Shown here one piece after another: positions 22,441 to 59,525 of a DNA stretch of 59,525 nt. The translations under genes and the position numbers were made by a program. Each line of letters begins with the position of its first letter. Within the stretch, counting starts at the first letter, position 1. Below the pieces are notes generated by a model. The model had not been told where the DNA came from. It did no database searches and was given only the letters and a program-made list of their open reading frames with translations. Source of the stretch: a virus; IMG/VR virus record IMGVR_UViG_3300045988_114220; one strand, given 5' to 3'.

Positions 22441-23780
22441 GAAAATACACCGTAAATGACTTCTTCTGCGGTGCAGGGGGGGTGGCGCTCGGATTTATTA
22501 AAGCCGGATTTGATGTGATTTGGGCGTGCGATTTTGACAAGCATTGCGTAAAGACCTACGCCCACAATGTAGGCGATTGGGTGCGAGAGGCTGATGTAAC
22601 AAAGATTACATACAAGGATATTCCGAAAGCGGACGGTTGGACTTTCGGTTTTCCGTGCCAAGACCTCTCCGTAGCCGGGAAGCAAGCCGGATTTCAATTC
22701 CGTTGCCTCGACTGCGGAACAGAATGGAAACACGAACACGAGGGGCTTTCCCCTATCTGCCCCAAATGCGGAGCAACGAACTATACGGCAATCACCCGAA
22801 GCGCTTGCTTTTTTGAGATTATGCGCCTACTCGACGAAACAGAGCGAAACGCCCCGGAGAATTACCCCTCGTTTCTACTCGCCGAAAATGTAAAGGGGCT
22901 GAAACCGTATATCCCCGTTTTGACAGAGCAGCTCGAACAGAGAGGTTTTGACGTGCATATTCAACTTTACAATTCAAAGTATTGGAATGTGCCGCAGAAC
23001 AGAGAGCGCTATTTTATCGTTGCCACGCCGAAAGGAAAAGGAAATTTCAAATTCCCGGAGGAACAACACGAATATGTGCCGAAACTCTCCTCCGCCCTCG
23101 ATAAAGAGGTGGACGAGAAATACTATATCCCCGACGAAAAGGCGCAGACGATTATCCTACAAGCGTTGCAGAAAATCGAAAATCTCGGCAATGCTCACCC
23201 GTGCATTACGCCGGACCGTCTGAGCAAGAGGCAGAACGGGCCAAGAGCAAAAGGCGACGAGGCGGAAATGTTCACGCTCACCGCGCAGGACATTCACGGA
23301 ATTATAATTCAAGAGCGCAAGGGCGTGAGCCGGGACGCAATGAAATACATTTCGGACAAGCTGCTCGAATTTGTCGAAAAGAAAGGATATATCCCAAAGT
23401 TTTTCAATCCGTATAACTGCTCGGATTGCGGAGAACTCGCACCGACGGCAACAACCGCTTGCGGCGGACTCACAACCTCGGCGACGGTACTCGTGTTCAC
23501 GGACAAGAACAGCGGAGAGCCTGTCATTATTCAGTTACCGAGAGGCAAAAACGGAGGCAACATTCACGACGTCGCTCCGACCTTAACCGCCAACGCGTAT
23601 GAGCAGAACAACTATGTTTGTGAAAATATCGAGGCGGTCGAGAGCAAAATCTGCAACGAGAGCGGATTGCTTGACCCGGAGGGGCAAGGAAAAACGCTCC
23701 GCGTTGGCGGGGGGGGGTCGCTGACAAAGAAGCACAATTATCAGCACATTTTAGTGAAACAGTCCGAGGCGGAGTCTTGA
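22437..23780 (+). CDS. DNA cytosine-5 methyltransferase, N-terminal portion (motifs I-VIII plus several TRD-like TL repeats); reading frame terminates after a G9 tract
   Basis: Motif I FFCGAGGVALGF, motif IV GFPCQDLSVAGK, ENV (motif VI) and QNRERYF (motif VIII). TRD-like segments MFTLTAQDIHG and VAPTLTANAY. A Cys4 ribbon is inserted after motif IV. Confidence 0.85.
   Translation: MRKYTVNDFFCGAGGVALGFIKAGFDVIWACDFDKHCVKTYAHNVGDWVREADVTKITYKDIPKADGWTFGFPCQDLSVAGKQAGFQFRCLDCGTEWKHEHEGLSPICPKCGATNYTAITRSACFFEIMRLLDETERNAPENYPSFLLAENVKGLKPYIPVLTEQLEQRGFDVHIQLYNSKYWNVPQNRERYFIVATPKGKGNFKFPEEQHEYVPKLSSALDKEVDEKYYIPDEKAQTIILQALQKIENLGNAHPCITPDRLSKRQNGPRAKGDEAEMFTLTAQDIHGIIIQERKGVSRDAMKYISDKLLEFVEKKGYIPKFFNPYNCSDCGELAPTATTACGGLTTSATVLVFTDKNSGEPVIIQLPRGKNGGNIHDVAPTLTANAYEQNNYVCENIEAVESKICNESGLLDPEGQGKTLRVGGGGSLTKKHNYQHILVKQSEAES
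23709..23717 (+). repeat. G9 homopolymer inside the MTase gene (frameshift hotspot)
   Basis: ggcgggggggggtcg. The +1 frame downstream (23718..23896) is open and encodes ...GIFVGVSPTLIATDYKGPHLVIED. Confidence 0.9.
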
Positions 23781-23888
23781 AAAAGCAACGTAACGGAAAA
23801 GGCATATTTGTAGGCGTTTCCCCAACGCTTATAGCAACGGACTACAAAGGTCCACATCTCGTAATTGAAGACAAGGAGGACGGCAAAA

Positions 23889-24548
23889 ATGAGTAAAGAA
23901 TATCTCGAATGCGTCGTAAATGACAGAGGCTTTGTAAGCAAGCCCGCGCAGATAACACCAATCGCACCAACGCTCCGAGCGCAGGATCACGGAAATCAGC
24001 CGAAAGTCGTTGAGGTGAAAAGCGAAGCAACGCCCGGAATTGAAGTAATCGGAATGCTTGAAAACAGCGGAACAACACAGCAGCACAATAACCGGGTACA
24101 CAGCGTAGACGGAATATCGCCGACGCTCACGGCCGTTTCGGGCGGCACACATCACATTAAAATCTTTGATATTTCTCGGTTTAGAGTCCGCAAACTCACG
24201 CCGACGGAATACGGTCGCTTGCAGGCTTTCCCTGTTGACGACGGTTGGGAACAGGTCGTTTCCGACAGCCAAGCCTACCACCAATTCGGCAACGCCGTTA
24301 CGGTGTCGGTAGTCGAGGCAATCGGACAGGCAATCGGGAGTTATCTTGACAGCATTTTCGGAGTTGAGGCGGAGGCAGTCGAAGTCACCGACTTGTCCGA
24401 CGCACCGCAGGAAATCAAAGAACAGATTATATCCAATGCCGAGGCGCTCGAAGCAAAGGAAGAAAAGGCACATACAAGCGGGCTTGAATTCTTCTCAAAT
24501 GAGGAACTGCTCGCAGAACTCAACCGCCGAATGACGGTACACGCATAA
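23889..24548 (+). CDS. DNA cytosine-5 methyltransferase, C-terminal portion (TRD-like segments plus motifs IX-X)
   Basis: RBS AAGGAGG then ATG at 23889. Contains IAPTLRAQDHG and ISPTLTAVSGG. Motif X is RKLTPTEYGRLQAFPVDDGWE...QFGNAVTVSVVEAI. Confidence 0.75.
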   Translation: MSKEYLECVVNDRGFVSKPAQITPIAPTLRAQDHGNQPKVVEVKSEATPGIEVIGMLENSGTTQQHNNRVHSVDGISPTLTAVSGGTHHIKIFDISRFRVRKLTPTEYGRLQAFPVDDGWEQVVSDSQAYHQFGNAVTVSVVEAIGQAIGSYLDSIFGVEAEAVEVTDLSDAPQEIKEQIISNAEALEAKEEKAHTSGLEFFSNEELLAELNRRMTVHA

Positions 24549-24561
24549 GGAGGACAAAGAA

Positions 24562-25623
24562 ATGAAACTATTTAGCACAGAACAGGTATCAAAGTATCAC
24601 CCTGACAAATACGCAGACCAAATCAGCGACGCTATCCTCACCGCTTGTTTGAGAGATGACAAAAACAGCCGTGTAGCCTGCGAGTGTATGGTAAAGGGAC
24701 GGACTGTTATTCTCGCCGGAGAAATCACCACTACGGCAAAGGTAGACTATGCGGAAATCGCAAAGAGAGTCGGAAAGAAACTCGGATATGAGGTTGACAC
24801 CGTAATTCAGCAGATTTGCACACAGTCACCCGAAATCGCCGGAGGCGTAAAGAGCGGCGACGAACTTTGTGCCGGGGACCAAGGCATTATGTTTGGATAT
24901 GCCTGTGACGACACAGAAAGCGGCCTGCCCTACGCTTTTGATATGGCGAATAGAATTATCCGTCTATTGGAAAAAGACACGACAGCGCCGAATTCAGCAC
25001 TCAAAGGGGACGCGAAATGCCAAGTAACCGTAGACACCGAGAAACCCAAAGACGACCGCAGCCTCGTAGAAATCCTCGTCAGCGTATGCCACAAAGAACA
25101 GTATAAGCTAAAAGACATCAGAGAGTATGTGCGAAACCTTATCAAATACAGCGGAATTGACATTGGAGAAGCAACACTCAATATCAACCCGGCAGGCGTA
25201 TGGACTTTCGGAGGACCGGCGGCAGATTGCGGACTCACGGGCAGAAAAATCGTATGCGACCAATACGGCGGATTTTGCGCTGTTGGCGGCGGAGCGTTCA
25301 GCGGAAAAGACCCGTCAAAGGTTGACCGCTCGGCGGCATATATGGCGAATTATATCGCCCGCGACCTCGTAAAAAATCACGGACTGAAATCCTGCGAGGT
25401 ACAGATTGCCTACGCCATCGGAGAAAGCGCGCCTATGAGCGTTTCGGTAAAATCCTCGTCCCCGGTCGAAGACGCATATTTCGCAAAACTTGTAGAGGAA
25501 AAATACGACCTCACACCGGCCGGCATTATCAAATACCTCGACCTCCTCAATGTGGACTACGAGAAACTCGCCGAGGGCTGTCATTACAGAATGGAGCTGC
25601 CGAAAAGAGGAACAAACAAATGA
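24562..25623 (+). CDS. metK: S-adenosylmethionine synthetase
   Basis: HPDKYADQISDAIL, GDQGIMFGYA and GGGAFSGKDPSKVDRSAAY are hallmark MetK motifs. RBS AAGGAGG. Confidence 0.9.
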   Translation: MKLFSTEQVSKYHPDKYADQISDAILTACLRDDKNSRVACECMVKGRTVILAGEITTTAKVDYAEIAKRVGKKLGYEVDTVIQQICTQSPEIAGGVKSGDELCAGDQGIMFGYACDDTESGLPYAFDMANRIIRLLEKDTTAPNSALKGDAKCQVTVDTEKPKDDRSLVEILVSVCHKEQYKLKDIREYVRNLIKYSGIDIGEATLNINPAGVWTFGGPAADCGLTGRKIVCDQYGGFCAVGGGAFSGKDPSKVDRSAAYMANYIARDLVKNHGLKSCEVQIAYAIGESAPMSVSVKSSSPVEDAYFAKLVEEKYDLTPAGIIKYLDLLNVDYEKLAEGCHYRMELPKRGTNK

Positions 25624-26582
25624 GGGAAAACAAATACACGGTTGCCGATTTAACGGCTATGCAAGCGTGGCCCCTTTCTCGGAAAATTCAAGTAACACAA
25701 ACGCGCATTATTGAGTGGTACATAAAAAACGAGGGGCGGGTCTATGTGTCATTCAGCGGAGGCAAGGACAGCACGGTTTTGCTCGACCTTGTAAGACGAA
25801 TATATCCAGAAGTCCCTGGCGTGTTTTTAGATACTGGGCTTGAATATCCCGAAATTCGAGATTTTGTCAAAACAAAGGAGAATATTGTTTGGTTAAAGCC
25901 CGAAATGAATTTCCGAAAAGTCATAGAAACATACGGCTACCCACTTGCAAGCAAAGAAATTTCTAAACAAATAAGCGCAGCCCGGCGAGGTGCGAAAAAT
26001 GCAATCCTCGCTTTTGACGGCAAAGATGTCGCAGGAAACGAAACCGAGCACAGGAAGCGATATAAAAAATGGAAATTTCTATACGAAAGCAATATTCCAA
26101 TTTCGGAAAAATGCTGTGAAGTTATGAAAAAGAAGCCTGCAAAGAAATATGAGAAAGAAACCGGGAGAAAGCCAATTATTGCGACTATGGCGGAAGAAAG
26201 CACTTTAAGAGCGCAGGCGTGGTTGAAGAACGGTTGCAACGCATTCGACGGAAAACGCCCCACATCACAACCTATGTCGTTTTGGACCGAGCAAGATGTT
26301 CTAACATACCTCAAAGAATACCATATACCGTATGCGCCTGTATATGGAGAAATCGAGGAAATAAACGGAGCATTAAAGACTACGCTATGCGATAGAACAG
26401 GGTGCGTATTTTGCGGTTTTGGTTGCCATTTAGAAAAAGAGCCGAACAGATTTCAACGGTTAAAAATAACTCACCCGAAGTTGTGGGAGTATTGTATGAA
26501 GCCGTGGGAAGCCGGAGGGCTTGGAATGAAAACACCGCTTGAATTCATAGGGGTAAAGACAGAAACGGAGGAAGAATTATGA
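25620..26582 (+). CDS. PAPS-reductase-like ATP pyrophosphatase (PP-loop) with C-terminal Cys cluster (IbrA/DndC-like)
   Basis: PP-loop VSFSGGKDSTV. C-terminal CDRTGCVFCGFGC. Confidence 0.8.
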   Translation: MRENKYTVADLTAMQAWPLSRKIQVTQTRIIEWYIKNEGRVYVSFSGGKDSTVLLDLVRRIYPEVPGVFLDTGLEYPEIRDFVKTKENIVWLKPEMNFRKVIETYGYPLASKEISKQISAARRGAKNAILAFDGKDVAGNETEHRKRYKKWKFLYESNIPISEKCCEVMKKKPAKKYEKETGRKPIIATMAEESTLRAQAWLKNGCNAFDGKRPTSQPMSFWTEQDVLTYLKEYHIPYAPVYGEIEEINGALKTTLCDRTGCVFCGFGCHLEKEPNRFQRLKITHPKLWEYCMKPWEAGGLGMKTPLEFIGVKTETEEEL

Positions 26583-27283
26583 AGCCGATATACGAGCCGA
26601 AAGGCAAAGCAAAAGAATACGGCGACTATGCGCTGAATATCTACACAGGCTGTCCGCACCGCTGTTTTTACTGTTTCGCCCCGAATGTTTTGCATAAGGA
26701 CCGTGAGATATTTTACTCAAACATAGAGCCGAGGACAGATATAGTCAAGGCGACAAAGCGGCAGCTTGAAAACGAAATGATAACCGGGAAACTCATTCAT
26801 CTCTGTTTCACTTGCGACCCGTACCCGACAGGCTACGACACTACACCTACACGAGAAATAATCAGAGCCATTAAGGAACACGGGAACAATGTTCAAATAC
26901 TCACCAAAGGCGACGGGAGCAGGGATTTTGATTTGCTCGGCCCGGAGGATTGGTACGGCATAACCCTCGACGGAGCGACAACTCGAACAGGACATTTTGA
27001 TAACGCACCCCTTTTCAGATACACCAATCTCATAAAGGCACACGAAAAAGGCATAAGGACTTGGGTATCATTCGAGCCTGTGCTGAACGCCGAAAATGTA
27101 CTCGGAATGATAAAGGACATAGCACCACACACAGATAAGGTAAAAATCGGGAAACTGAACTACCACAAGTCAGATATAAATTGGGCGGAATTCGGGAGAA
27201 AAGCCGAGGAACTCTGTCAAAAACTTGGACTTGACTGTTATATCAAAGAAAGCCTACGAGCAGAAATGGAGGCAAAGAAATGA
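26579..27283 (+). CDS. SPL-type (DNA photolyase-like) radical SAM protein, copy A
   Basis: TGCPHRCFYCFA is a CxxxCxxC motif in the SplB-like GCxHxCxYCFA context. Confidence 0.6.
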   Translation: MKPIYEPKGKAKEYGDYALNIYTGCPHRCFYCFAPNVLHKDREIFYSNIEPRTDIVKATKRQLENEMITGKLIHLCFTCDPYPTGYDTTPTREIIRAIKEHGNNVQILTKGDGSRDFDLLGPEDWYGITLDGATTRTGHFDNAPLFRYTNLIKAHEKGIRTWVSFEPVLNAENVLGMIKDIAPHTDKVKIGKLNYHKSDINWAEFGRKAEELCQKLGLDCYIKESLRAEMEAKK

Positions 27284-27702
27284 AAACCCCGGAAGAAATA
27301 AAGCATTTACCAAATCTCCTTATAGCACAGACGAGCGAAGACGGAGGGTGTGGCGTACTGTTTAGGCTCGGAAAGAGGTTTGCCTCTGTTATTTGGAGTG
27401 ACGGAGGCGGTTGGGAACACGTCAGTATATGCCCGTTCAAACGCTCCTATATGCCCTCTTGGGACGATATGTGCCAACTCAAAGATATGTTCTTCAAAGA
27501 GAACGAAACCGTCGTGCAGTATCACCCGGCAAAGAGCGAGTATGTAAACAATATGGCAAACTGCCTACATTTGTGGCGACCGACGAATGGCGTACTTCCA
27601 ACACCGCCCTCTATTATGGTGGGAACGAAAAAGGGCCAAAGCAGAGCAGAAATCGAAGCAGCAATTAAGGAGGTTTGCGAAAATGAGCAGATACACAGAT
27701 AG
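27280..27702 (+). CDS. Hypothetical protein
   Basis: ATGA overlap. Contains the conserved-looking stretch WEHVSICP...SWDDM. Confidence 0.5.
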   Translation: MKTPEEIKHLPNLLIAQTSEDGGCGVLFRLGKRFASVIWSDGGGWEHVSICPFKRSYMPSWDDMCQLKDMFFKENETVVQYHPAKSEYVNNMANCLHLWRPTNGVLPTPPSIMVGTKKGQSRAEIEAAIKEVCENEQIHR

Positions 27703-28126
27703 CATTCAGAAACTTGTTGACCTTGCGAAAGAACACCCGGACCTGCCTATCGTTGCAATGGTAGACGGAGAAATAGTCGGTGGTGACGACTATGGGCGTT
27801 GGTTGGGGAGCGTCGGAAACGTGGAACTCGGCGAATATGTACTGTTTGACGACCGTTTTATCGACGACCGCGAGGAATTCAAAGAAAGGTATTATGACTA
27901 CAACGACGACGAACTCTGCGAGAAATTCGGATATGAGCCGGGTATCAATGAATACACCCTCAAAAACGGGCATTGTACGAGGAAGCGGTACGAGGAAAAC
28001 AAGGAAAACGAAAAACGCCTCGAAGCATACCTCGACGAAGTGGCGGAGCGAGCGTTCAAAGCGGCGATTATCGTCAACATTGACCTCCCGGACGACGTCG
28101 AAACATTTGAGGAGGGCGTCAAGTAA
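27683..28126 (+). CDS. Hypothetical acidic protein
   Basis: RBS AAGGAGG and ATG at 27683. Confidence 0.45.
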   Translation: MSRYTDSIQKLVDLAKEHPDLPIVAMVDGEIVGGDDYGRWLGSVGNVELGEYVLFDDRFIDDREEFKERYYDYNDDELCEKFGYEPGINEYTLKNGHCTRKRYEENKENEKRLEAYLDEVAERAFKAAIIVNIDLPDDVETFEEGVK

Positions 28127-28500
28127 TGAGAGGTGCAAAACCGGAACTGCTGAAAGAACTCTCTAAATACTCGAAAGAGGACATAATCGAGGCTCTCGGA
28201 CGGCAATACCAAGCGGATTTTATCATCAGCGGCATTGTAGGCGACCTTGAATATATAGCCTCAAAAAGACTGCTCGACGAACACGGTAAGGCTATTAAAG
28301 CACGCGAGGACGCTTTTGGAGCGTATGTGGAGTGGCGCAATCAAATGTGCATAGCCTACGGCGACGGCAAAAGCGTTAAATTGACAAATATACCGCCGAA
28401 AGAAATAACAAAAGGCACAGCCCTTGTAAGAGCGTTAAAAAGTGCAACCGAAGCCGAGCAGAAACTCGACAAAAAAATCAGCAAAATGCTGAAAATTTAG
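28126..28500 (+). CDS. Hypothetical protein
   Basis: Coupled start. Confidence 0.45.
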   Translation: MRGAKPELLKELSKYSKEDIIEALGRQYQADFIISGIVGDLEYIASKRLLDEHGKAIKAREDAFGAYVEWRNQMCIAYGDGKSVKLTNIPPKEITKGTALVRALKSATEAEQKLDKKISKMLKI

Positions 28501-28513
28501 GAGGACAATAAAT

Positions 28514-28837
28514 ATGAAAAACATATCAGAACTCTCCGACCTTATGTTGGAAATTCTCGAAAGCTGCCCGGATTTTAAGTTAAATCCGCGAGGGATTGAG
28601 ATAATCAATGAGATTGCGGATTACGCCGAGCAGACAGACATATTCAAAGCAAACAAGGAACGCGGCGAAATCTTTGACGGGCAGACTGCAAAAAACATAT
28701 TTTGTTATATGCTCGACCGCGTTGTAAATGCACCAACGGTATTACATAGAAATTCGAGCGTAATTCTTATTATGCCGTTTGTAAGAAAAAGACTGAACGA
28801 AGAAATGGCAGGAGGAAACGATAATGTCAAAAATTAA
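28514..28837 (+). CDS. Hypothetical protein
   Basis: RBS AGGAGGACAATAAATATG. Confidence 0.45.
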   Translation: MKNISELSDLMLEILESCPDFKLNPRGIEIINEIADYAEQTDIFKANKERGEIFDGQTAKNIFCYMLDRVVNAPTVLHRNSSVILIMPFVRKRLNEEMAGGNDNVKN

Positions 28838-29948
28838 AATCACAGCAGAAAACAACATTCAGTTTGAAGCGGAGGGCGAAGACCGTTTCGTGCAGGAAGA
28901 ACGCAGAGCCTTTATGGAAATGCTCGCCGACAAAAACACGGTCAAGGCGGTTAAAGCGGTACAGGAAGCAATCACACCCCGCACGGTCCGCCCGGACGGG
29001 CTTGCAGAGGAAACAGTAGTCATTTACGACGACTACGGTATTCCCTCGATTATGAGGAAAATCAGCAAGGTAACAAACGCAGAGTTATTCGGCGGCGCAA
29101 ACAAAACGCACTCGGCGTTTATTATCGACGGCGAGGAATACGACGAGATTTATATTTCCGTATATCCGAACTGCGTTATCAACGGCCGCCCCTATTCTCT
29201 GCCTTATATGAAACCGTGGACGGACCTGACAAATGACGCGGCAGCAAAGGCGTGTTTCAGCAAGGGCGACGGTTGGCATTTAATGACGGCGGCAGAATGG
29301 GGACTCGTAGCGAATATCTGCAACCGGGACGGCACATATCCGCACGGCAACACGAAACACGGTAAATATCACGCAGACCCGTCCGAGGAGGGCGCTACAT
29401 TCGACGGAGGCACAGGCAAAACCCTCACGGGAAGCGGGCCGGCGACGTGGACGCACAATCACAAGCCGGACGGCATACACGACCTCTGCGGCAATGTGTG
29501 GGAAATGATTAGAGGCCTCCGCATTATTAACGGAAAAATCGAAGTCGCAAAGGACAATAACGCCGCACTTGACATTGACCTCACCGAAGCGGGCGACGAT
29601 TGGCAGCCTCTCACCGCTCCGAACGGTAAGCCGATAAATTTCTCCGTAGGCGACGATTTCAAATTCACAACGGACGAGCCGGAGGACGGCTACAACGGGA
29701 CCGAATGGGAAAATGTTTACTCGGATTTCGGATTTTCGGACGAACTCAAAGAACTTGCACTCTACCCCGGAGAAGACAACGCCTATCTGTATGTAGATAG
29801 CACCGAGGGCGAATATCTGCCGTATCGTGGTGGCAGCTGGAACAACGGGGCGAATGCGGGCGTGTTCTACACGAATTTGGATGGCGGGCGCACGGCTGCG
29901 GGCGGCGGCGTCGGTTTCCGCTCCGCTTATTTCAAAAAGAAAGACTGA
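28824..29948 (+). CDS. Remote DGR target protein with an FGE/C-type-lectin-fold C-terminus carrying VR1
   Basis: C-terminal YRGGSWNNGANAGVFYTNLDGGRTAAGGGVGFRSAYF. The GDGWHLMTAAEWG core is paralogous to the tail-fibre target 57822..58892. Confidence 0.85.
   Translation: MSKIKITAENNIQFEAEGEDRFVQEERRAFMEMLADKNTVKAVKAVQEAITPRTVRPDGLAEETVVIYDDYGIPSIMRKISKVTNAELFGGANKTHSAFIIDGEEYDEIYISVYPNCVINGRPYSLPYMKPWTDLTNDAAAKACFSKGDGWHLMTAAEWGLVANICNRDGTYPHGNTKHGKYHADPSEEGATFDGGTGKTLTGSGPATWTHNHKPDGIHDLCGNVWEMIRGLRIINGKIEVAKDNNAALDIDLTEAGDDWQPLTAPNGKPINFSVGDDFKFTTDEPEDGYNGTEWENVYSDFGFSDELKELALYPGEDNAYLYVDSTEGEYLPYRGGSWNNGANAGVFYTNLDGGRTAAGGGVGFRSAYFKKKD
29819..29928 (+). repeat. DGR variable repeat VR1
   Basis: Aligns to TR 59382..59490 with 14 mismatches, all at TR adenines. 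The 3' block cggtttccgctccgct is identical. Confidence 0.85.
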
Positions 29949-29970
29949 CAACTGATTACTGAAAAACTGT

Positions 29971-29993
29971 CGGGGCGGTCGAAAGACCGCTCC
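29971..29993 (+). other. GC-rich hairpin (GAAA loop) 43 nt downstream of VR1
   Basis: ggggcggtc-gaaa-gaccgctcc. Confidence 0.5.
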
Positions 29994-30011
29994 ACAGAGA
30001 AAGGAAACGAT

Positions 30012-30431
30012 ATGCCCGAAAGAATTTATACAGCGCCGTACACTTGCGTATCGTGCGGCGGACCGAAGACGAGGACGGAGGACGACCTCTGCCCCGCTTG
30101 TATCGAAAAGGCAAAGCGGAGCGCGGAAATCAAAATGGACGAGGCAACCCTACGCAGAGCAATCGCCGCATACGGTAAAAACGCACAGGTGGATATGGCG
30201 ATAGAGGAAATGAGCGAACTGACAAAGGCACTATGCAAGGAGCGGAGGTATGAACTCGTAAAAGGGACACACGCCGAGGCTCACGCAAATGTTATCGAGG
30301 AAATTGCAGATGTGCTGATTATGTGCAGGCAACTGCTCATTATTTTCGACCGGGACGAAGAAATCCAAGCCGAAATCAATTACAAAATTCAGCGCCTCAA
30401 ACAGAGGCTCGACAAACGAGAGGAGCAATAA
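30012..30431 (+). CDS. MazG-like nucleotide pyrophosphohydrolase with N-terminal zinc ribbon
   Basis: Contains EEMSELTKAL...EEIADVLIM and CVSCGG...CPAC. Confidence 0.45.
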   Translation: MPERIYTAPYTCVSCGGPKTRTEDDLCPACIEKAKRSAEIKMDEATLRRAIAAYGKNAQVDMAIEEMSELTKALCKERRYELVKGTHAEAHANVIEEIADVLIMCRQLLIIFDRDEEIQAEINYKIQRLKQRLDKREEQ

Positions 30432-30434
30432 TCT

Positions 30435-30830
30435 ATGAATATGGTTGTTTTGGTAGGAAGAACTACCACCGACATTGAGTTAAAGACCACACCGAACGGC
30501 GTTTCGGTTGCGTCGTTCGTATTAGTGGTTGACCGCAGAACAAAAGAGGACGCGGCGGACTTTCCGACCGTGGTGGCGTGGAGGCAGACGGCGGAATTTG
30601 CCTCGAAGTATATCCAAAAGGGGCGCAAAATCGTCGTACAGGGCGAAATCCGTACCCGCAACTATGAAGACCGGGACGGAAAGAAACGAAAGGTCACGGA
30701 GATACACGCGACGAATATTGAGTTTGCGGATAGCAAGCCGACCACAGGCAACGGAAACAGCACAACGACCGCACCGGGACCGGCAGAGGGCTTTGACGAA
30801 ATCCCCGGCGACGAAGATTTACCGTTTTGA
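30435..30830 (+). CDS. ssb: Single-stranded DNA-binding protein
   Basis: OB-fold MNMVVLVGRTTTDIELKTTPNGVSVASF...VVAWR and an acidic C-terminal tail DEDLPF. Confidence 0.85.
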   Translation: MNMVVLVGRTTTDIELKTTPNGVSVASFVLVVDRRTKEDAADFPTVVAWRQTAEFASKYIQKGRKIVVQGEIRTRNYEDRDGKKRKVTEIHATNIEFADSKPTTGNGNSTTTAPGPAEGFDEIPGDEDLPF

Positions 30831-31045
30831 TTAGAAAAGTAAAACTCACGCCGGAGGACAAAAGGATATTCGCAACAGAGGTAAAGAAACTCTCCGCCCC
30901 GGAATTTGTGCAGCTGACAAAAGAACTTGAAATTTTCAAAGAACGATTTACCGCCGAGGATTGGAAATATATCTGCTCGCACACAGGACGGAGAGCGGAG
31001 CGGCTGTTGCGAAATGTAGCCGAGCATTACAGTTTTGACGATTAG
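30827..31045 (+). CDS. Hypothetical protein
   Basis: Coupled start. Confidence 0.4.
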   Translation: MIRKVKLTPEDKRIFATEVKKLSAPEFVQLTKELEIFKERFTAEDWKYICSHTGRRAERLLRNVAEHYSFDD

Positions 31046-31058
31046 GAGGAATAACACA

Positions 31059-31331
31059 ATGGCAAAGAAAAGAAATTGCAGACGAACCCCGGAAGAAATC
31101 GAAATTCACGAGGAGGCGGTAAAACTGCGTAAAATGACGGACGAGCAGCTCGTAATGGCGTTCAGAGCCTCCTCTGCCTCCTCTCGTGGCGTTTCGGAGA
31201 AACCCATAGAGAAGAACACGGACGGAGTGAAAATGCTGATTGAGGGGCTTTCTCGTGGCGATTGCAAGGGCGTAAAGGGAGCGACCGCATACAAGATTGC
31301 GGAATATGCCGAAGAAATGGGGCTGATGTAA
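31059..31331 (+). CDS. Hypothetical protein
   Basis: RBS AGGAGGAATAACACAATG. Confidence 0.4.
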   Translation: MAKKRNCRRTPEEIEIHEEAVKLRKMTDEQLVMAFRASSASSRGVSEKPIEKNTDGVKMLIEGLSRGDCKGVKGATAYKIAEYAEEMGLM

Positions 31332-31837
31332 TGGACGCAAAGCGACACCAACACACCATACAGGGGTATAGGAACAAATACAACGGGCAGTTATTTGAGA
31401 ATATCATAACCGCCTCCTGCCATTATTACTATCAGCAGAAAAAGGCGCTTATAATCAAAACGCCCGAACCTATGAAACCGATAAAAGACCTCGGCGGCGG
31501 AAAATTTGTCGCATATTACGAGAAACACGCACAGCCAGACTACAAAGGGACATTCAGCACCGGGCAAACGGTTATTTTCGACGCAAAGCACACCGAGGAG
31601 GACCGTTTGAAACAGTCGGCGGTAACCCCGGCGCAGACAGAGTCGCTGAACAAGCACTACGATTTTGGGGCGCGTTGCTTTATAGTCGTGTCATTCGGTT
31701 TTCAACAATTTTTCAATGTCCCGTGGGAAGTTTTCCGGGAAATGAAAGAGCGATACGGACGAAAGTACATAAAGCCGGAGGATATTCCCGAATACCGGGT
31801 ACAATTCGACGGAAGCATAGTAAAATTTTTAGGATAG
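31331..31837 (+). CDS. recU: RecU-like Holliday-junction resolvase
   Basis: IIKTPEPMKP...DYKGTF...VIFDAKHTEE...CFIVVSF matches the RecU core. Confidence 0.7.
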   Translation: MDAKRHQHTIQGYRNKYNGQLFENIITASCHYYYQQKKALIIKTPEPMKPIKDLGGGKFVAYYEKHAQPDYKGTFSTGQTVIFDAKHTEEDRLKQSAVTPAQTESLNKHYDFGARCFIVVSFGFQQFFNVPWEVFREMKERYGRKYIKPEDIPEYRVQFDGSIVKFLG

Positions 31838-31848
31838 GAGGAAACACT

Positions 31849-32100
31849 ATGAAACTGTTTCAAAAATGGCGTATCAGAAAGCACCGACAGGAAATTGAGG
31901 AACGCATAGAGGAATACAATACTGCGCTCGCCTCTCTTTCGGAAGCAGCCGCCGGACTGCTGAAAGTCGCCGAAAGCTGCAACATCTCCACCGAAACGCT
32001 ACGGCAGACGGTTGAGCAGATGAAAGAAATCGCAGAGAAAGCGGCAATCACGCCGGAGGACCTGCAGAGAGGAGGAACAAAGCATTATGGGAAAGAGTAA
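31849..32100 (+). CDS. Hypothetical protein
   Basis: RBS TAGGAGGAAACACTATG. Confidence 0.4.
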   Translation: MKLFQKWRIRKHRQEIEERIEEYNTALASLSEAAAGLLKVAESCNISTETLRQTVEQMKEIAEKAAITPEDLQRGGTKHYGKE

Positions 32101-32755
32101 ATCCGAACTCGAATTGCAGAACATAATTCAGACGGCCGTAACAGCAGCTTTTGAGGTTGCAAATCAGAATATCGAGGAGAAATTGCAGAAAGCGGTTGAA
32201 CTCGGAACAAAAATAGGCGCAGCCGTCGGAGCGGAAGTCGGAGCGAAAGCGGCGGTAAAGGCCGTGGAGCGCGAGAAAAAGAGAGTCAGAGAAAGACTGT
32301 ACGACAGACGCTATCACAACACCAAACTCCTCTTGCAGAATTACAGACACCTCAATGAGCATTTCAAGAACGCTATTTTTGAAATAGAGCAGGCAGAAGA
32401 ATTCGACGAAACATTCTACGACATTATGGAATGTATGAACAGCCGAGGATATGACGACGAGATTTATGTGGAGGGCATTAAGCAAAGCACTATCCGCACG
32501 AAAATCATAATGACGCACGTAAACCGTATGCTCGACATCTATGGGATTATGTGTGAAAGGTCAAGCCGAGAGGACGATAAGCGTCACTACCGTATTTTGA
32601 GGGCAATGTATATCGACGAAACACCAACCACAGCGCAGGCAATAGCAGACCGGGAGAAAATCGACAAAAGAACGGTATACAGGGACATTGACGCGGCTAC
32701 GGCCTGCCTCACCTCGTTACTTTACGGCGCAGACGGACTTGACAAAATGAAATGA
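32087..32755 (+). CDS. Putative late-gene transcriptional activator (ArpU/sigma-region-4-like C-terminal HTH)
   Basis: The C-terminus is TPTTAQAIADREKIDKRTVYRDIDAATACLTSLL. It precedes a strong promoter and the packaging genes. Confidence 0.45.
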   Translation: MGKSKSELELQNIIQTAVTAAFEVANQNIEEKLQKAVELGTKIGAAVGAEVGAKAAVKAVEREKKRVRERLYDRRYHNTKLLLQNYRHLNEHFKNAIFEIEQAEEFDETFYDIMECMNSRGYDDEIYVEGIKQSTIRTKIIMTHVNRMLDIYGIMCERSSREDDKRHYRILRAMYIDETPTTAQAIADREKIDKRTVYRDIDAATACLTSLLYGADGLDKMK

Positions 32756-32780
32756 CCCGCTCCGTGTCACAAACTCGCCA

Positions 32781-32810
32781 TTGACGTGTCAATACGGCGT
32801 GTGGTATAAT
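32781..32810 (+). promoter_or_regulatory. Promoter TTGACG-18-TATAAT
   Basis: TTGACG at 32781-32786 and TATAAT at 32805-32810. Confidence 0.55.
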
Positions 32811-32920
32811 GTAAACTGTAAAATTACAGATACGGCCGCTCGGCGAAAACCGGGCGGCTATATTTTTTACCTTGCAATGCCCCGAATTGGGACAATTCAA
32901 ACAAAAAGAGGTGCGTACCT

Positions 32921-33511
32921 ATGGAGATACGCAAAGTTAAAGTAAGCGATTTGCGGCCGGCGGAGTACAATCCGAGGCAGGACCTCAAACCCGGTGACCG
33001 CGAATACGAAAAAATCGCTCGCTCTATCGACGAGTTTGGGTATGTAGAGCCGATTGTGTGGAACGAAACAACGGGAAACATTGTAGGCGGACACCAAAGG
33101 CTCAAAATCCTTATTGAGCGAGGCGAAACCGAGGTGGAGGTTTCGGTCGTAAGACTGAACGAACACGACGAAAAGGTGCTGAATGTTGCGCTGAACAAAA
33201 TTACCGGGCGTTGGGACACCGGGAAACTGACCGACTTGCTGAAAGAATTGCAGGCGGAGGGCGCAATGGAGGTAACGGGCTTTGAAGATTGGGAACTCGA
33301 CGCATTGAGTATGCAGTACGACCATATCGACGATTTGCTCAACGAGGATTTCTCGGAGTTTGCCGCCAAAGAGCCGAAAGACACCTTTACAATGACATTT
33401 ACCCTCCCGGAAGATGTAAAAACCGCCGTACAGGAATATATCGAAACGACACCGAACGCAAAAGCGGAACTTGCTACGGCGATTATCAACAAGGTTAAGG
33501 GGGTGTCATAA
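32921..33511 (+). CDS. ParB/Srx-like nuclease-domain protein, paralog 1
   Basis: Contains DLRPAEYNPRQ and VGGHQRL. Confidence 0.75.
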   Translation: MEIRKVKVSDLRPAEYNPRQDLKPGDREYEKIARSIDEFGYVEPIVWNETTGNIVGGHQRLKILIERGETEVEVSVVRLNEHDEKVLNVALNKITGRWDTGKLTDLLKELQAEGAMEVTGFEDWELDALSMQYDHIDDLLNEDFSEFAAKEPKDTFTMTFTLPEDVKTAVQEYIETTPNAKAELATAIINKVKGVS

Positions 33512-34081
33512 ATGATTATCGCAAAGAAACGCATAGACGAAATGGACCGGGCGAAGTATAACCCGCGAATTGAACTGCGACCGGGCGACGACGAATACGA
33601 GAAGCTGCACGGCAATATTCTCCGTTTCGGAATGGTGTTACCTATCGTATGGAACGAGAGGACGAACACGGTCGTCGGAGGACATCAGCGCCTCACCGTT
33701 TTGGAAAACGACGGCGTGGAGGAGGTTGAGGTATCGGTAGTAAACCTCGACGAGAAGCAGGAAAAGCAGCTTAATATCGCCCTCAATAAGACGGGCGGTA
33801 ATTGGGACGAGGCAAAACTCACGGCGTTGCTCGACGAACTCGGCGACGACGCACTCGAAACGGGATTTAGCGAAATGGAAATTGAGGCGTTACAGAACGA
33901 CATTGACGACCTCGTAGACGGAGGATTTCTGAACGACGAATTATCGACGCTCGAAAAACTCTTTAACCTGTCACTCACATTCAATTCGGCGGACCGTGCG
34001 GACATTAACGCATATATCAAGGACTACGGAAAAGAGGACCTTGTGAAAGTGATTATCCAAAAAGTGAGAGGAGAGATATAA
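33512..34081 (+). CDS. ParB/Srx-like nuclease-domain protein, paralog 2
   Basis: Contains YNPRIELRPGDDEYEKL, VGGHQRL and LNIALNKTGGNWD. It is in tandem with paralog 1. Confidence 0.75.
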   Translation: MIIAKKRIDEMDRAKYNPRIELRPGDDEYEKLHGNILRFGMVLPIVWNERTNTVVGGHQRLTVLENDGVEEVEVSVVNLDEKQEKQLNIALNKTGGNWDEAKLTALLDELGDDALETGFSEMEIEALQNDIDDLVDGGFLNDELSTLEKLFNLSLTFNSADRADINAYIKDYGKEDLVKVIIQKVRGEI

Positions 34082-35100
34082 TGGGGTGCATTTGCGGAAG
34101 CCAAGCAATCCTATGCAACCTACCTATTCGCTTTGACACCTACAAGGGGTGTAGTCACGGTTGCCGATATTGCTTTGCACAGAAAAAGCAGGACATAGCC
34201 AAAATCGGAAAAGGTGAAACGGCGGAAAGCCTGCGGAATTTTATCGAGGGAAAGCGCACCGACACGACGAATTGGTGCGATTGGAAAATCCCCATTCATT
34301 GGGGCGGAATGAGCGACCCGTTTCAGCCTATCGAACGGAAATACAGAGTATCGTATGAGTGCTTGAAGCTGCTCGCCGAAACGAAGTACCCATTTGTCGT
34401 AAGCACAAAGGGCCGACTTGTGGCAACGCCGGACTACATAGAACTGCTGTCGAAATGCAACTGCGTCGTACAGATTTCTATGGTGTGCAGTAAATACGAC
34501 AAACTCGAAAGAGGTTGCCCGCCTTATGAGGAGCGCCTCGAAATGGTGCGGAAACTCGCCCCGAAAGTACAGAGAGTCGTTGTCAGAATTCAGCCGTATA
34601 TGTTGGAAGTATTCGACGACGTGATGAAAAACATTCCCCGCCTCGCAGAAGCAGGCGTATACGGAGTTGTCGTAGAGGGAATGAAATTTTTTAAGGCAAA
34701 AGAGGGTATGGTGAAAATCGGAGGCGATTATTGCTATCCTCTGCCGCGTATCCGCAGAGATTTTGAGGCTATCCGAGCGGAGTGCCACCGAAACGGCATT
34801 AAATTCTACGCGGGAGAAAATAGGCTGCGCGCAATGGGCGACAATATGTGCTGTTGCGGCATAGACGGCCTGCCCGATTTCAAGGGAAACGACTACAACC
34901 TATGTATGCTATTGAATGGTAAAAACCCACAGCCGACGGAACTTATGAAAACAGTCGGGACCGGCGGTTGCTTCAAGGCTCTTAATCAGAGCGCAGGAAG
35001 CAGCAGAAAACTCACGAAGCAGTCTTTTTACGGGCTTATGCAAGAAGAACTCGCAACAAAACTTGATTACCATAGAAAGGTGTTCGGACTTGACGAATAG
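34081..35100 (+). CDS. SPL-type radical SAM protein, copy B
   Basis: Contains YKGCSHGCRYCFA. Confidence 0.7.
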   Translation: MGCICGSQAILCNLPIRFDTYKGCSHGCRYCFAQKKQDIAKIGKGETAESLRNFIEGKRTDTTNWCDWKIPIHWGGMSDPFQPIERKYRVSYECLKLLAETKYPFVVSTKGRLVATPDYIELLSKCNCVVQISMVCSKYDKLERGCPPYEERLEMVRKLAPKVQRVVVRIQPYMLEVFDDVMKNIPRLAEAGVYGVVVEGMKFFKAKEGMVKIGGDYCYPLPRIRRDFEAIRAECHRNGIKFYAGENRLRAMGDNMCCCGIDGLPDFKGNDYNLCMLLNGKNPQPTELMKTVGTGGCFKALNQSAGSSRKLTKQSFYGLMQEELATKLDYHRKVFGLDE

Positions 35101-35935
35101 CCTCACCCCGGTACAAGAAATAAACGGACTGCTGATGAAGCGTGAGGACCTTTACGCTCCTTTCGGGAGAGGAGAGGTAAACGGAGGAAAACTGAGGCAA
35201 TGTATGATGTTGACGGATAGCGTCCTCGCTGCCGACAATGGCGTACAATGCCTCTTTACTTATTGTAGCATACATTCACCACAAGCGCCGATAACGGCCG
35301 CCTCTGCCCGTTCTCACGGCTTGCCCTGCTACATTGTATACGGAGGAGGAAAAGCAGAGAATGTTAAAACATTGCCTATGCCGCGATTGGCAATGAAATA
35401 CGGCGCTCAAATAATTATCGGAGCGAGGAGCGGGCGGCATAATGTTCTTTATGCGGCTACGAAGCCTCTTTCCGAGAAAAAACGCGGATTTATAGTACAA
35501 TACGGCATTAACCTCGTAGGCTATGGTGATGTACTTCTCGACGCTGTATCAGCACAGGTTGAAAATATCCCGAATGAGATAGAAAATCTTGTTATGACTT
35601 GCGGAAGCGGAATAACCGCCTCCGGCGTAATGATAGGACTACACAAATACGGGAAAAAGGTCAAGAATGTTCACCTCGTAGCAACCGCCCCAGACAGACG
35701 AGCGTTTATACACGCAAATTTAAGGCAATACGGAGCGGACAGAGAATTTCATTATCACAGTCTATTCCATACGCCCGGATTTGTATATGAAAAAGGCGCA
35801 AAGGCGGTATGGGGGGGTCTAACGCTTCACCCACATTACGAGGCGAAGACAATGCAATGGTTTATGCAAAGCGGACTCAACCCCTCCGACACCCTCTTTT
35901 GGATAGTCGGCGCAGAGCCGTCGAATAGAGCGTAA
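35088..35935 (+). CDS. PLP-dependent fold-type-II enzyme (ACC deaminase/D-cysteine desulfhydrase-like)
   Basis: Contains LMKREDLYAPFGRGEVNGGKLRQ. The start is uncertain: TTG at 35088 after AAAGGTG, with alternatives at 35063 and ATG 35135. Confidence 0.5.
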
Positions 35936-59374: not shown

Positions 59375-59490
59375 AGCGGTCGCCGTATCGTGGTGGCAAC
59401 TGGAACAACGGGACGAATGCGGGCGTGTTCTACACGAATTTGAATAACGGGCGCACGAATACGAGCAACAACATCGGTTTCCGCTCCGCT
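59375..59490 (+). repeat. DGR template repeat (TR); its 3' end is duplicated at 1..20
   Basis: Adenine-rich invariant copy of both VRs. It lies between avd and the RT. Confidence 0.85.
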
Positions 59491-59525
59491 CTGCTGTTGT
59501 GCCGGGACAAGGTGAAAATCCTACG

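Follow-up and report, generated by a model that had tools for sequence, protein, structure and literature searches.

Introduction

In the 5-aminoethyl-dU pathway of Pseudomonas phage M6, the spore photoproduct lyase (SPL)-like radical SAM glycinyl-thymine isomerase gp53 and the PLP-dependent decarboxylase gp52 are experimentally established DNA-acting enzymes, both of which work post-replication on DNA-borne thymine derivatives; a 5-hmdU kinase and an amino-acid:DNA transferase act ahead of gp53 (PMC8989533). In other phages, ParB homologues load or activate thymine dioxygenases on DNA, as in the pair 5mYOX176 and ParB176, and the best structural matches of these ParBs are the C. crescentus and M. 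xanthus proteins CcParB and MxParB (PMC13229309). The same is done for DpdA by DpdB in 7-deazaguanine DNA modification, where the base-modifying enzyme requires this ParB-fold NTPase as a partner (PMC10164549).

Here we analyze a gut phage gene set that resembles each of these systems in part. A preliminary description had grouped MetK, a PAPS-reductase-like protein, two radical SAM proteins (rSAM_A and rSAM_B), two ParB-like proteins, and a PLP enzyme into a single DNA hypermodification island. Pfam, PHROG, and PDB-fold matches confirm every one of these genes, all on the + strand, at essentially the claimed coordinates (Table 1); only the PLP start moves, from 35088 to a TTG at 35090 that is preceded by a GAAAGG ribosome binding site at 35075-80. 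Hypermodification remains the best reading for ParB1, ParB2, rSAM_B, and the PLP enzyme, but not for MetK, the PAPS-reductase-like protein, or rSAM_A. As judged from sequence comparison, the set is a mosaic and not one pathway, with the ParB1-ParB2-rSAM_B-PLP cassette as its sole conserved functional unit.

Table 1. Features of the gene set and its surroundings in the window (the whole 59,525-nt stretch of DNA that was analyzed)
Feature	Position	Strand	Assignment
C5-cytosine DNA methyltransferase, two ORFs	22317..24548 (22317-23780, 23865-24548)	+	split C5-MTase
MetK (SAM synthetase)	24562..25623	+	phrog_1569
PAPS-reductase-like PP-loop ATPase	25620..26582	+	PAPS_reduct 74.9 bits
rSAM_A, 234 aa	26579..27283	+	CPHRCFYCF; phrog_13321
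Candidate late-operon leader	32781..32859	+	consensus matches only; putative function
ParB1	32921..33511	+	short ParB-like protein; phrog_620/498
ParB2	33512..34081	+	tandem paralogue of ParB1
rSAM_B	34081..35100	+	SPL-like radical SAM enzyme; CSHGCRYCF
PLP fold-II enzyme	35090..35935	+	PALP; M6 gp52 homologue
terS	35949-36452	+	context only
terL	36449-37855	+	context only

Results and Discussion

A Conserved Cassette Precedes the Terminase Genes

The ParB1-ParB2-rSAM_B(-PLP) cassette (32921-35935) is the only unit conserved across about 160 related loci. It lies directly 5′ of terS/terL and is translationally coupled: gaps or overlaps from ParB1 through terL measure 0-13 nt, the ParB2 stop codon and the rSAM_B start codon share 1 nt, and the PLP gene overlaps the end of rSAM_B, stop codon included, by 11 nt. 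The cassette forms the first genes of a tightly packed packaging (late) operon. In the 165-nt gap upstream of ParB1 sits a candidate leader, where the best sigma-70-like promoter of a 13-kb scan (TTGACG-18-TATAAT with a TG extension) is followed on its 3′ side by the strongest hairpin and T-run of that scan.

Across 80 viral rSAM_B loci, ParB1 occurs in 75, ParB2 in 76, TerS in 76, TerL in 65, and the PLP gene in 53, while MetK, rSAM_A, and the PAPS-reductase-like gene occur in 6, 3, and 1, respectively. The terminase genes adjoin the cassette in >90% of loci. The association with ParB extends to genome loci (Clostridia, Coriobacteriia, Bacteroidales, Planctomycetota, Elusimicrobia, Victivallales, and others), where a ParB gene lies at most four genes from rSAM_B in 65 of 78 loci. 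HMM matches to this ParB subfamily were found in 70/80 rSAM_B genome loci from many anaerobe phyla, in 7/64 rSAM_A loci, and in 3/80 PAPS-reductase-like loci. Divergent relatives carry a single ParB.

rSAM_B and the PLP Enzyme Are Remote Homologues of the M6 Pair

rSAM_B is the predicted catalytic core of the cassette. Its CxxxCxxC motif comprises C24, C28, and C31, and the invariant motifs are WGGMSDPFQPIE, ENRLR, and CCG; the family counts 258 clusters at 50% identity (E<=1e-30). The AF2 model (pLDDT 91) has spore photoproduct lyase 4fhc as its best PDB fold match (E 2.6e-8, TM 0.55), and SplB and rSAM_B share the radical SAM TIM-barrel fold. DNA thymine-methyl radical chemistry is the theme of the spore photoproduct lyase family. 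At the sequence level, however, rSAM_B matches no PDB entry for SPL (E<=1) and no SPL family model. It does match M6 gp53 (BLASTP 9e-7, hhalign 92.7%) and a sister family, rSAM_C (hhalign 99.5%).

The PLP enzyme scores 35.1 bits against the Pfam PALP cut-off of 35, and its best PDB sequence match is 1j0a. Its alignment with M6 gp52 runs end to end (5e-5) and pairs the Lys of its GGKLRQ motif with K36, the proposed aldimine lysine of the M6 protein. The gene is found only beside rSAM_B, directly 3′ of it in 41 of 42 loci. The two stay together in L077, a high-GC locus that has no ParB and retains them apart from any terminase gene, and they stand in the M6 gene order in L291. The PLP gene is missing from one third of viral loci, from most genome loci, and from half of the phages whose ParB1 is identical; it is a dispensable, optional tailoring step.

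Taken together, the alignments place gp53 and gp52 as the closest characterized relatives of the two cassette enzymes, albeit as remote homologues with identities of only 21-24%. In both phages, an SPL-like radical SAM gene adjoins a gene for a fold-II PLP enzyme, both proteins are detectably homologous, and the PDB relatives are the same (4fhc/4fhe for the radical SAM protein, 1j0a for the PLP enzyme). In contrast to gp53, rSAM_B is 140 aa shorter and has the CCG and ENRLR motifs as its own; the PLP partner is optional; and two ParB genes are fixed partners in the window, whereas M6 has none. M6 also requires an upstream dUMP hydroxymethylase, 5-hmdU DNA kinase, and amino-acid:DNA transferase, but neither the window nor any rSAM_B locus was found to encode one of the three. 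Initiating the modification would thus fall to rSAM_B alone, which is unprecedented.

The ParB Pair and an Interchangeable Slot

ParB1 and ParB2 are 45% identical; their Pfam ParB_N matches are marginal, while phrog_620/498 match at 1e-37 to 1e-46. In ParB1, a disordered linker joins an N-terminal NTP-binding-type domain (NPR...GGHQR) to a two-helix C-terminal domain, and no HTH DNA-binding domain is predicted. Profile comparison places ParB1 nearest to the N-terminal domain of DNA methyltransferases with a ParB fusion (MTase_II model PDLC03229, 7.5e-41). Its AF2 model, which is of low confidence (pLDDT 69.5), has CcParB and MxParB as best fold matches and in this agrees with the ParBs of the phage thymine dioxygenase systems. 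By analogy, we propose that ParB1 may be a loader or activator that places rSAM_B onto duplex DNA.

This arrangement resembles the 5mYOX176/ParB176 system, in which a short ParB of the same layout (N- and C-terminal domains joined by a linker, without a DNA-binding domain) stands beside a post-replicative DNA modifier, frequently in a terminase neighborhood. The differences are that the 5mYOX176 system has one ParB rather than two paralogues as putative partners and that 5mYOX176 is an Fe(II)/2-oxoglutarate dioxygenase, whereas the cassette partner is a radical SAM enzyme.

A comparison of phages related by TerL shows that the slot before the terminase is interchangeable while orthologous ParB pairs persist. 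Its other occupants are a ParB with a DpdA-like transglycosylase (TGT) and a Vut transporter; a ParB fusion plus methyltransferases; ParB with PAPS_reduct proteins; and ParB with rSAM_C. The DpdA-like enzyme thus adjoins ParB1/ParB2 orthologues in the same slot, although its guanine transglycosylation chemistry and enzyme class differ from those of rSAM_B; the window contains no DpdA or preQ0 genes. rSAM_C is accompanied by a TET-associated glycosyltransferase (TAGT), an amino-acid:DNA transferase (ADDT), a P-loop kinase/APH, GNAT, a cytidylyltransferase, and, once, a C5-MTase. The accessory families of phage TET/JBP enzymes are the same, and the thymine dioxygenase toolkit (glycosyltransferase, kinase/APH, GNAT, amino-acid transferase) equals that of rSAM_C.

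Does the Cassette Act on DNA?

We consider it unlikely that the ParBs serve packaging, partition, or late-gene regulation while rSAM_B, with or without the PLP enzyme, modifies a protein, an RNA, or a small molecule for counter-defense or metabolism. Phage terminase genes often have ParB-like nucleases and regulators nearby, and the terminase-side position of the cassette is also compatible with a packaging-related ParB role. Furthermore, action of rSAM_B on DNA is something we only infer, and five TerL-related loci have ParB genes without any radical SAM gene (four with a ParB pair, L403 with a single hybrid ParB). In these rSAM-less loci, however, the neighbors of the ParBs are a precursor transporter and a DpdA-like DNA transglycosylase, so that a DNA modifier is still at their side. 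The methyltransferase-type ParB profile, the DNA-acting homologues of both rSAM_B and the PLP enzyme, and the terminase-independent pair in L077 also argue against this reading.

Still less probable is a repair device, an SPL-like lyase that ParB targets and that undoes thymine photoproduct-type or other radical-repairable lesions in phage DNA before packaging. Such a role would fit the best solved-structure match of rSAM_B, the many spore-forming Clostridia among the hosts of its family, and the SplB-like radical SAM genes of bacterial SOS and repair neighborhoods (PMC3765255). Besides the missing SPL sequence match, the family also occurs in non-sporulating phyla of dark, anoxic habitats, and its context of ParB, PLP enzyme, and terminase is unlike that of SplB. 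The partners are biosynthetic rather than repair-related (a decarboxylase homologue for rSAM_B; a glycosyltransferase, an amino-acid:DNA transferase, a kinase, and an acetyltransferase for rSAM_C), and the slot is interchangeable with DpdA and MTase cassettes.

The Remaining Genes Are Separate Additions

None of the genes for MetK, the PAPS-reductase-like protein, rSAM_A, and the split C5-MTase is a step of the cassette pathway; each is an add-on that moves or was acquired separately. The two halves of the set lie 5.6 kb apart, with unrelated genes (DUF7694, a DGR target protein, SSB, RecU, and an HTH protein) at 27.3-32.9 kb. MetK, in which three of three S-AdoMet synthetase domains exceed the Pfam cut-offs, probably supplies SAM for SAM-consuming enzymes of the phage. 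Synteny with the cassette is rare. In two distant loci (L075 and L251), however, a MetK-like gene immediately follows rSAM_B, which makes the suggested SAM-supply link plausible. rSAM_A falls just below the Pfam Radical_SAM cut-off (28.2 against 29.5) and matches its PHROG at 8e-17; it shares this PHROG with rSAM_B, the resemblance being limited to the cluster motif. It is a solo accessory gene, with no conserved neighbor in 55 viral loci. The C5-MTase could provide a 5mC substrate and is otherwise an independent DNA-modification gene.

The PAPS-reductase-like gene is likewise a solo accessory that behaves as mobile. All of 73 homologues retain its PP-loop SGGKDST and Cys165/166, 206, 262, and 265, and this CC...C...CxxC set is compatible with an Fe-S cluster. 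The protein shares a PP-loop ATP-pyrophosphatase domain with DndC/SspD/BrxP and IbrA-IbrB. The IbrA/IbrB-type pairing suggested earlier does not hold, as the ParBs go with rSAM_B; the gene lacks the partner genes, and DUF3440 was not detected. A single SAM-intensive pathway of all the genes with DndA/DndC-like sulfur insertion, in which the PLP enzyme frees sulfur and the PP-loop enzyme passes it to DNA, draws on the PP-loop and cysteines, a weak N-terminal similarity to BrxP, SspD, and DndC, weak NCBIfam matches of the PLP enzyme (D-cysteine desulfhydrase family, C-S/C-C lyases), and the shared genome and strand, but is very improbable given that the similarity is confined to the PP-loop region (residues ~20-110), that no DndA/D/E-like genes were found, that the gene has no conserved neighbor in 77 viral loci and never has the PLP gene tied to it, that 98-99% identical phages lack it (L001) or the PLP gene (L002), and that the PLP enzyme, a homologue of a DNA-acting decarboxylase, scores 27.7 bits against a DcyD/ACCD cut-off of 289.

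Proposed Function of the Cassette

The reading that we favor, to which we give slightly better than an even chance, is that the cassette would be a ParB-assisted, post-replicative, oxygen-independent hypermodification module for the phage's own DNA. The ParB paralogues, both without a classical DNA-binding domain, would form a dimeric partner through which the enzyme is loaded or activated on duplex phage DNA once this has been replicated. rSAM_B would then cleave SAM, the supply of which MetK may plausibly raise, and the resulting 5′-deoxyadenosyl radical would functionalize a base; our guess is that the target is most plausibly the C5-methyl of thymine or of phage-made 5-methylcytosine and that the product bears an amino-acid-type group. 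Where present, the PLP enzyme, as a homologue of the M6 gp52 and ViI gp226 decarboxylases, might trim the added group, for example by decarboxylation. The modified DNA would finally be packaged, shielded from host nucleases. With a radical SAM enzyme as the catalytic partner instead of an Fe(II)/2-oxoglutarate dioxygenase, this chemistry would not need O2, in keeping with the strictly anaerobic hosts.

Organization and Conservation of the ParB-rSAM_B Unit

The genes that the preliminary description had joined into one DNA hypermodification island are all present in the window, namely, MetK, a PAPS-reductase-like gene, two radical SAM genes (rSAM_A and rSAM_B), ParB1 and ParB2, which are tandem paralogues with 45% identity, and a PLP fold-II enzyme (hereafter PLP). 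Their coordinates are collected in the table below. On the basis of homologue comparison and of the sequence itself, the PLP start is moved from 35088 to a TTG codon, with a ribosome-binding site ahead of it and an overlap with the rSAM_B stop codon. The genes do not form a contiguous island, as the stretch between rSAM_A and ParB1 is occupied by unrelated genes (DUF7694, small ORFs, a DGR target protein, a MazG-like ORF, SSB, RecU, and an HTH protein). The cassette of ParB1, ParB2, rSAM_B, and PLP is packed gap-free into an operon that runs on into terS and terL. A scan of 24-37 kb placed its best promoter-like site in the interval that separates the HTH gene from ParB1, and the strongest hairpin and T-run comes 24 nt later in the same interval. 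Together they may mark a late-operon leader whose terminator is read through, or else a small RNA.

Features of the window discussed in the text, with their coordinates
Feature	Coordinates	Remarks
Terminal direct repeat	1-55; 59471-59525	exact
DGR reverse transcriptase	27-1340	
Phosphoesterase-SMC/AAA ATPase fusion	14343-18185	1280 aa, early region
C5-cytosine methyltransferase, first ORF	22317-23780	zinc-ribbon insert
C5-cytosine methyltransferase, second ORF	23865-24548	same frame as first ORF
MetK	24562-25623	
PAPS-reductase-like	25620-26582	
rSAM_A	26579-27283	
Unrelated genes	27.3-32.9 kb	between rSAM_A and ParB1
DGR target g28824	28824-29948	early region
DGR variable repeat	29812-29927	3' end of g28824
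Candidate promoter and hairpin	32781-32859	between HTH gene and ParB1
ParB1	32921-33511	
ParB2	33512-34081	
rSAM_B	34081-35100	
PLP	35090-35935	TTG start
DGR target gene	57822-58892	
DGR variable repeat	58765-58880	3' end of gene 57822-58892
DGR bAvd	58965-59351	
DGR template repeat	59375-59490	

To establish what travels together, we gathered loci around relatives of each gene, with flanks of up to 10 kb. The 80 viral rSAM_B loci contain ParB1 in 75 cases, ParB2 in 76, TerS in 76, TerL in 65, and PLP in 53; the corresponding counts are only 6 for MetK, 3 for rSAM_A, and 1 for the PAPS-reductase-like gene. When 78 genome loci were clustered by neighborhood, one genome per species, a ParB gene lay within four genes of rSAM_B in 65, mostly directly upstream, and a profile of the ParB subfamily matched in 70 of 80 such rSAM_B loci, in 7 of 64 rSAM_A loci, and in 3 of 80 PAPS-reductase-like loci. 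The adjacency of ParB and rSAM_B is thus conserved in viral and genome loci alike. The genome loci reach 46% identity and come from Clostridia, Collinsella, Bacteroidales, Planctomycetota, Elusimicrobia, Victivallis, and gut Alphaproteobacteria; in divergent lineages a single-copy ParB stands beside rSAM_B. The ParB1 protein recurs in identical form on 156 contigs.

PLP lies directly 3' of rSAM_B in 41 of 42 loci; it is kept beside rSAM_B in a high-GC, ParB-less locus (L077), and the order is reversed in another (L291). Six near-identical phages whose ParB1 is 100% identical to that of the window (L484-L489) carry PLP in three cases and have cleanly deleted it in the other three, leaving behind the first ∼5 and last ∼20 nt of the gene; the tailoring step is polymorphic within the species. 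Elsewhere among near-identical phages, one is without the PAPS-reductase-like gene and another without DUF7694 and PLP. From the neighbor comparison we therefore take the unit to be one or two ParB genes plus rSAM_B, with PLP optional.

Fusions of ParB with rSAM_B were considered as a Rosetta-stone link and rejected. Four of them (P0067, P0075, P0077, and P0079) have unrelated N-termini, from ParB, DnaC-like, or portal fragments, attached to one and the same rSAM variant at a shared junction (...IERDESVDGLRSF...) and have no Fe-S cluster motif; they are probably chimeric products of public run assemblies and a potential trap for analyses of domain fusion. The sole clean in-frame ParB2-rSAM_B fusion (P0010) is a single sequence and was left out of the evidence.

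MetK, the PAPS-Reductase-like Gene, and rSAM_A

MetK is identified by its N-terminal, central, and C-terminal domains (96.9, 77.1, and 156.5 bits, respectively, all above cut-offs). The two genes that follow it had been counted as parts of the same system; across the compared loci, neighborhood clustering found no conserved partners for either rSAM_A (55 loci) or the PAPS-reductase-like gene (77 loci), and each travels alone. In the PAPS-reductase-like protein, both the PP-loop and a CC...C...CxxC cysteine set, which is a probable Fe-S site, are invariant; its gene is very common in phages, the viral collection yielding >600 matches. An assignment to the DndC/SspD/BrxP type is not supported, as these proteins are matched over the PP-loop only (residues ∼20-112), the score on the DndC model TIGR03183 is 15.5 bits (cut-off 290), and no DndA/D/E, SspA-C, or BREX partner genes were found in the window. 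Nor is there an IbrA/IbrB-type pair, given the scarcity of ParB matches in its loci, the lack of an adjoining ParB in the window, and the lack of DUF3440. A role in adenylating or thiolating nucleic acids would be plausible for this protein.

We note one AT-rich viral contig (L155:6960-8948) in which an rSAM_B-like ORF immediately precedes a homologue of the PAPS-reductase-like gene, the sole such adjacency seen. The ORF, as called, is without the N-terminal CxxxCxxC segment, and the pair lies downstream of a C5 methyltransferase and a methyltransferase that reads as Dam-like by sequence only.

rSAM_A carries CPHRCFYC. It was considered as a close paralogue of rSAM_B and rejected, the likeness being limited to 16 residues around the cluster motif. 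Both proteins match phrog_13321, and both fall just below the Pfam PF04055 cut-off of 29.5 (28.2 bits for rSAM_A and 26.2 bits for rSAM_B).

rSAM_B and PLP Are Related to Enzymes of Phage M6

The CxxxCxxC motif of rSAM_B (C24, C28, and C31) is invariant in 37 homologues, and we place the protein in the radical SAM superfamily on the strength of this motif and its fold, the Pfam score being below cut-off. The family comprises 258 clusters at 50% identity (E ≤ 1e-30). In the predicted structure (pLDDT 91), the top match among solved structures is spore photoproduct lyase (SPL); a phmmer search of PDB sequences did not return SPL at E ≤ 1, and NCBIfam gave only sub-threshold matches to the PA0069, Rv2578c, and mobile-pair-B models, so that the modeled likeness to SPL is at the level of the fold only. 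PADLOC defence-system models gave no matches to rSAM_A, rSAM_B, or PLP.

The closest characterised relative of rSAM_B is gp53 of Pseudomonas phage M6, a radical SAM enzyme of SPL-like type whose reaction is the isomerisation of N-alpha-glycinyl-thymine in DNA; the adjoining gp52, a PLP enzyme for which PDB 1j0a served as the modelling template, decarboxylates the product to 5-aminoethyl-dU (PMC8989533). The two radical SAM proteins align with a BLASTP value of 9e-7 over 216 aa (hhalign 92.7%, E 4e-7) and have in common the cluster motif and a ...DPF.PIE... motif. For PLP, 1j0a is the best match among PDB sequences, and the alignment with M6 gp52 runs end to end (BLASTP 5e-5). In the alignment of this family (A3), the Lys of the PLP motif GGKLRQ falls in the column of M6 gp52 K36, the proposed aldimine lysine, and KRxDL and an SG loop are invariant. 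By these alignments, PLP is a remote homologue of DNA decarboxylases of the M6 gp52/ViI gp226 type with the aldimine lysine conserved. It had been described as ACC-deaminase- or D-cysteine-desulfhydrase-like, an assignment that the family models do not bear out (TIGR01275, 27.7 bits versus a cut-off of 289.4; PRK14045, 18.8 versus 550).

The likeness to M6 stops at these two steps. Homology searches and Pfam scans of ORFs found no dUMP hydroxymethylase, 5-hmdU DNA kinase, or amino-acid:DNA transferase in the window, nor were homologues of the three found in 160 rSAM_B loci, so that the hydroxymethylase, kinase, and transferase steps of the M6 pathway are lacking in both. DNA hypermodification stands as the best reading for one module, the ParB-rSAM_B cassette, and to that extent the earlier interpretation is right; what it got wrong is how the genes connect, since they do not make up a single island, PLP follows no sulfur logic, and an IbrAB-type pairing is lacking.

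ParB1 and ParB2

Both ParB proteins find their best match in ParB-fused DNA methyltransferases, namely in the ParB domain at the N-terminus. The ParB1 model, at a mean pLDDT of only 69.5, consists of an N-terminal domain (residues 1-95), short helices, a disordered segment (132-155), and two C-terminal helices, and at this modest confidence no HTH domain is predicted. Its top fold matches are the ParB proteins of C. crescentus (CcParB) and M. xanthus (MxParB). ParB homologues activate phage thymine dioxygenases on double-stranded DNA, and in that 5mYOX-ParB system the architecture that the ParB1 model suggests, and the same two structural relatives, are described (PMC13229309). From that system, 5mYOX176 and ParB176 have been co-expressed aerobically in E. 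coli. A second precedent for a ParB-fold partner of a DNA modifier is DpdB, an ATPase with this fold on which the DNA transglycosylase DpdA depends (PMC10164549).

The Pre-terminase Slot and the Sister Family rSAM_C

We surveyed the position ahead of the terminase genes in 47 TerL-related phages with enough upstream sequence. The slot holds ParB-ParB-rSAM_B in 32/47 and ParB-ParB with a second radical SAM protein, rSAM_C (471 aa), in 2/47. Five of the 47 (L395, L397, L400, L402, and L403) have orthologous ParB gene(s), 46-49% identical, and no rSAM; four of these have the ParB pair, and L403 has a single hybrid in which two ParB genes have recombined. Full reading of two of the rSAM-less loci showed the ParBs to be directly preceded by a DpdA-like transglycosylase (phrog_887) and by a transporter of the Vut family (YhhQ-like), which suggests a ParB-assisted 7-deazaguanine cassette. 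One phage has two ParBs, a ParB fusion, and a class-I methyltransferase at this position, one has two PAPS_reduct proteins interleaved with ParBs, and 6/47 have none of these modules. We read the pre-terminase slot as a modification slot.

rSAM_C is a sister family of rSAM_B (hhalign 99.5%, 28% identity), with the N-terminal, WGG..D.F, and CCG motifs in common; its members (L372/L427-L482) are about 430-471 aa long, ParB-coupled, and pre-terminase. Their neighbors are a hypermodification toolkit: of 56 loci, a TET-associated glycosyltransferase (TAGT, PF20691) is found in 26, a P-loop nucleotide kinase in 12, a GNAT and an rSAM-SPASM protein in 8 each, an amino-acid:DNA transferase of the M6 gp51 family (PF18724) in 7, and a cytidylyltransferase in 5. 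A Pfam scan of 14 rSAM_C loci adds APH-type kinases as well as a C5-MTase, which occurs in a single locus together with TAGT; no TET/JBP family was among the 25 best-represented Pfam families in these 14 loci. Tailoring genes of the rSAM_C type were not found in rSAM_B loci.

Other Features of the Phage Genome

Because of its exact 55-nt terminal direct repeat, we regard the window as a circularly closed, complete phage genome of 59,470 bp. Nearly all genes are on the plus strand, with a serine recombinase and a CI-like repressor encoded on the minus strand, and tail sheath, baseplate J, and portal proteins are encoded; the phage is temperate with a contractile tail. Its relatives by terminase are gut Firmicutes phages, and the source names of its protein homologues are Oscillospiraceae, Faecalispora, Anaerotruncus, and Oscillibacter. 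For prophages with the cassette, Faecalispora jeddahensis and Anaerotruncus colihominis (proteins P0033 and P0061) are candidate hosts by source name. No DNA shared between the region and any cultured phage was found, and a tblastn search of the phage collection with rSAM_B returned two unannotated faecal contigs only.

The genome carries a DGR with two targets, and the repeat mismatches fall at template-adenine positions; the second target, g28824, lies within the span of the formerly proposed island. Both targets give weak FGE-sulfatase/C-type-lectin-like matches. The two ORFs of the C5-cytosine methyltransferase are separated by four stop codons and represent either a natural two-subunit enzyme or a pseudogene. 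The calcineurin-like phosphoesterase fused to an SMC/AAA ATPase is SbcC-SbcD-like and weakly matches LmuB/AriA-type defence ATPases.

Proposed Mechanism and Implications

The cassette has conserved synteny, translational coupling, a recognizable fold, remote homology to DNA-acting enzymes, and an interchangeable slot. In the mechanism that we propose, ParB1/2 would act late in infection by loading rSAM_B onto replicated duplex DNA or activating it there, the 5'-deoxyadenosyl radical of rSAM_B would yield a functionalised base, and PLP would then strip a carboxylate or otherwise trim the amine-bearing group. To our knowledge, the characterised relatives of PLP all need an alpha-amino-acid moiety on the base, and because no separate transferase is present, rSAM_B itself would have to install a group of this type. 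SPL and M6 gp53 both handle a 5-thymidyl radical, which makes the thymine C5-methyl the favoured target; alternatively, the target may be 5mC made by the phage's own C5-MTase. The C5-MTase and TAGT arrangement of the one rSAM_C locus is seen with phage TET enzymes. In two distant loci, MetK-like genes lie directly 3' of rSAM_B, consistent with heavy SAM use. The source genomes of rSAM_B are nearly all MAGs from gut, rumen, termite, or sediment samples, and such sources fit an O2-independent replacement for dioxygenase chemistry.

A broader proposal, which we put forward tentatively and consider rather unlikely, is that the ParB-coupled SPL-like radical SAM proteins (rSAM_B and rSAM_C) are O2-independent counterparts of TET/JBP. 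Together with ParB, they would take a hydrogen off the C5-methyl group that thymine or 5-methylcytosine carries in duplex DNA, and so start hypermodification on canonical or methylated DNA, with interchangeable tailoring by the PLP decarboxylase for rSAM_B and, for rSAM_C, by TAGT, a kinase, an amino-acid:DNA transferase, or a GNAT; phages of anaerobes, including abundant human-gut prophages, would then have a widespread class of base modification that has so far gone unseen.

Among known phage DNA-hypermodification systems, the cassette is best classed as a variant. No description of it was found in the literature searched, and as far as that literature shows, the combination of ParB with an SPL-like radical SAM protein is undescribed. 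For annotation, a shared genome alone does not make a phage "PAPS reductase" and a "DNA repair photolyase" one pathway. If the cassette modifies DNA, new nucleosides are predicted, ParB-fold proteins would gain a third enzyme class under the emerging rule that they are adaptors for DNA modifiers, and new enzymes for site-directed DNA functionalisation would become available; it may also explain gut phage DNA that resists restriction, cloning, or sequencing. So far as we are aware, the known routes to post-replicative hypermodification of pyrimidines begin either with 5-hydroxymethyl-dUTP/dCTP synthesised ahead of replication or with O2-dependent TET/JBP dioxygenases. The gut virome is dominated by phages of strict anaerobes, to which the oxidative route should be closed, and a ParB-assisted radical SAM initiator would fill this gap and is a common candidate for it.
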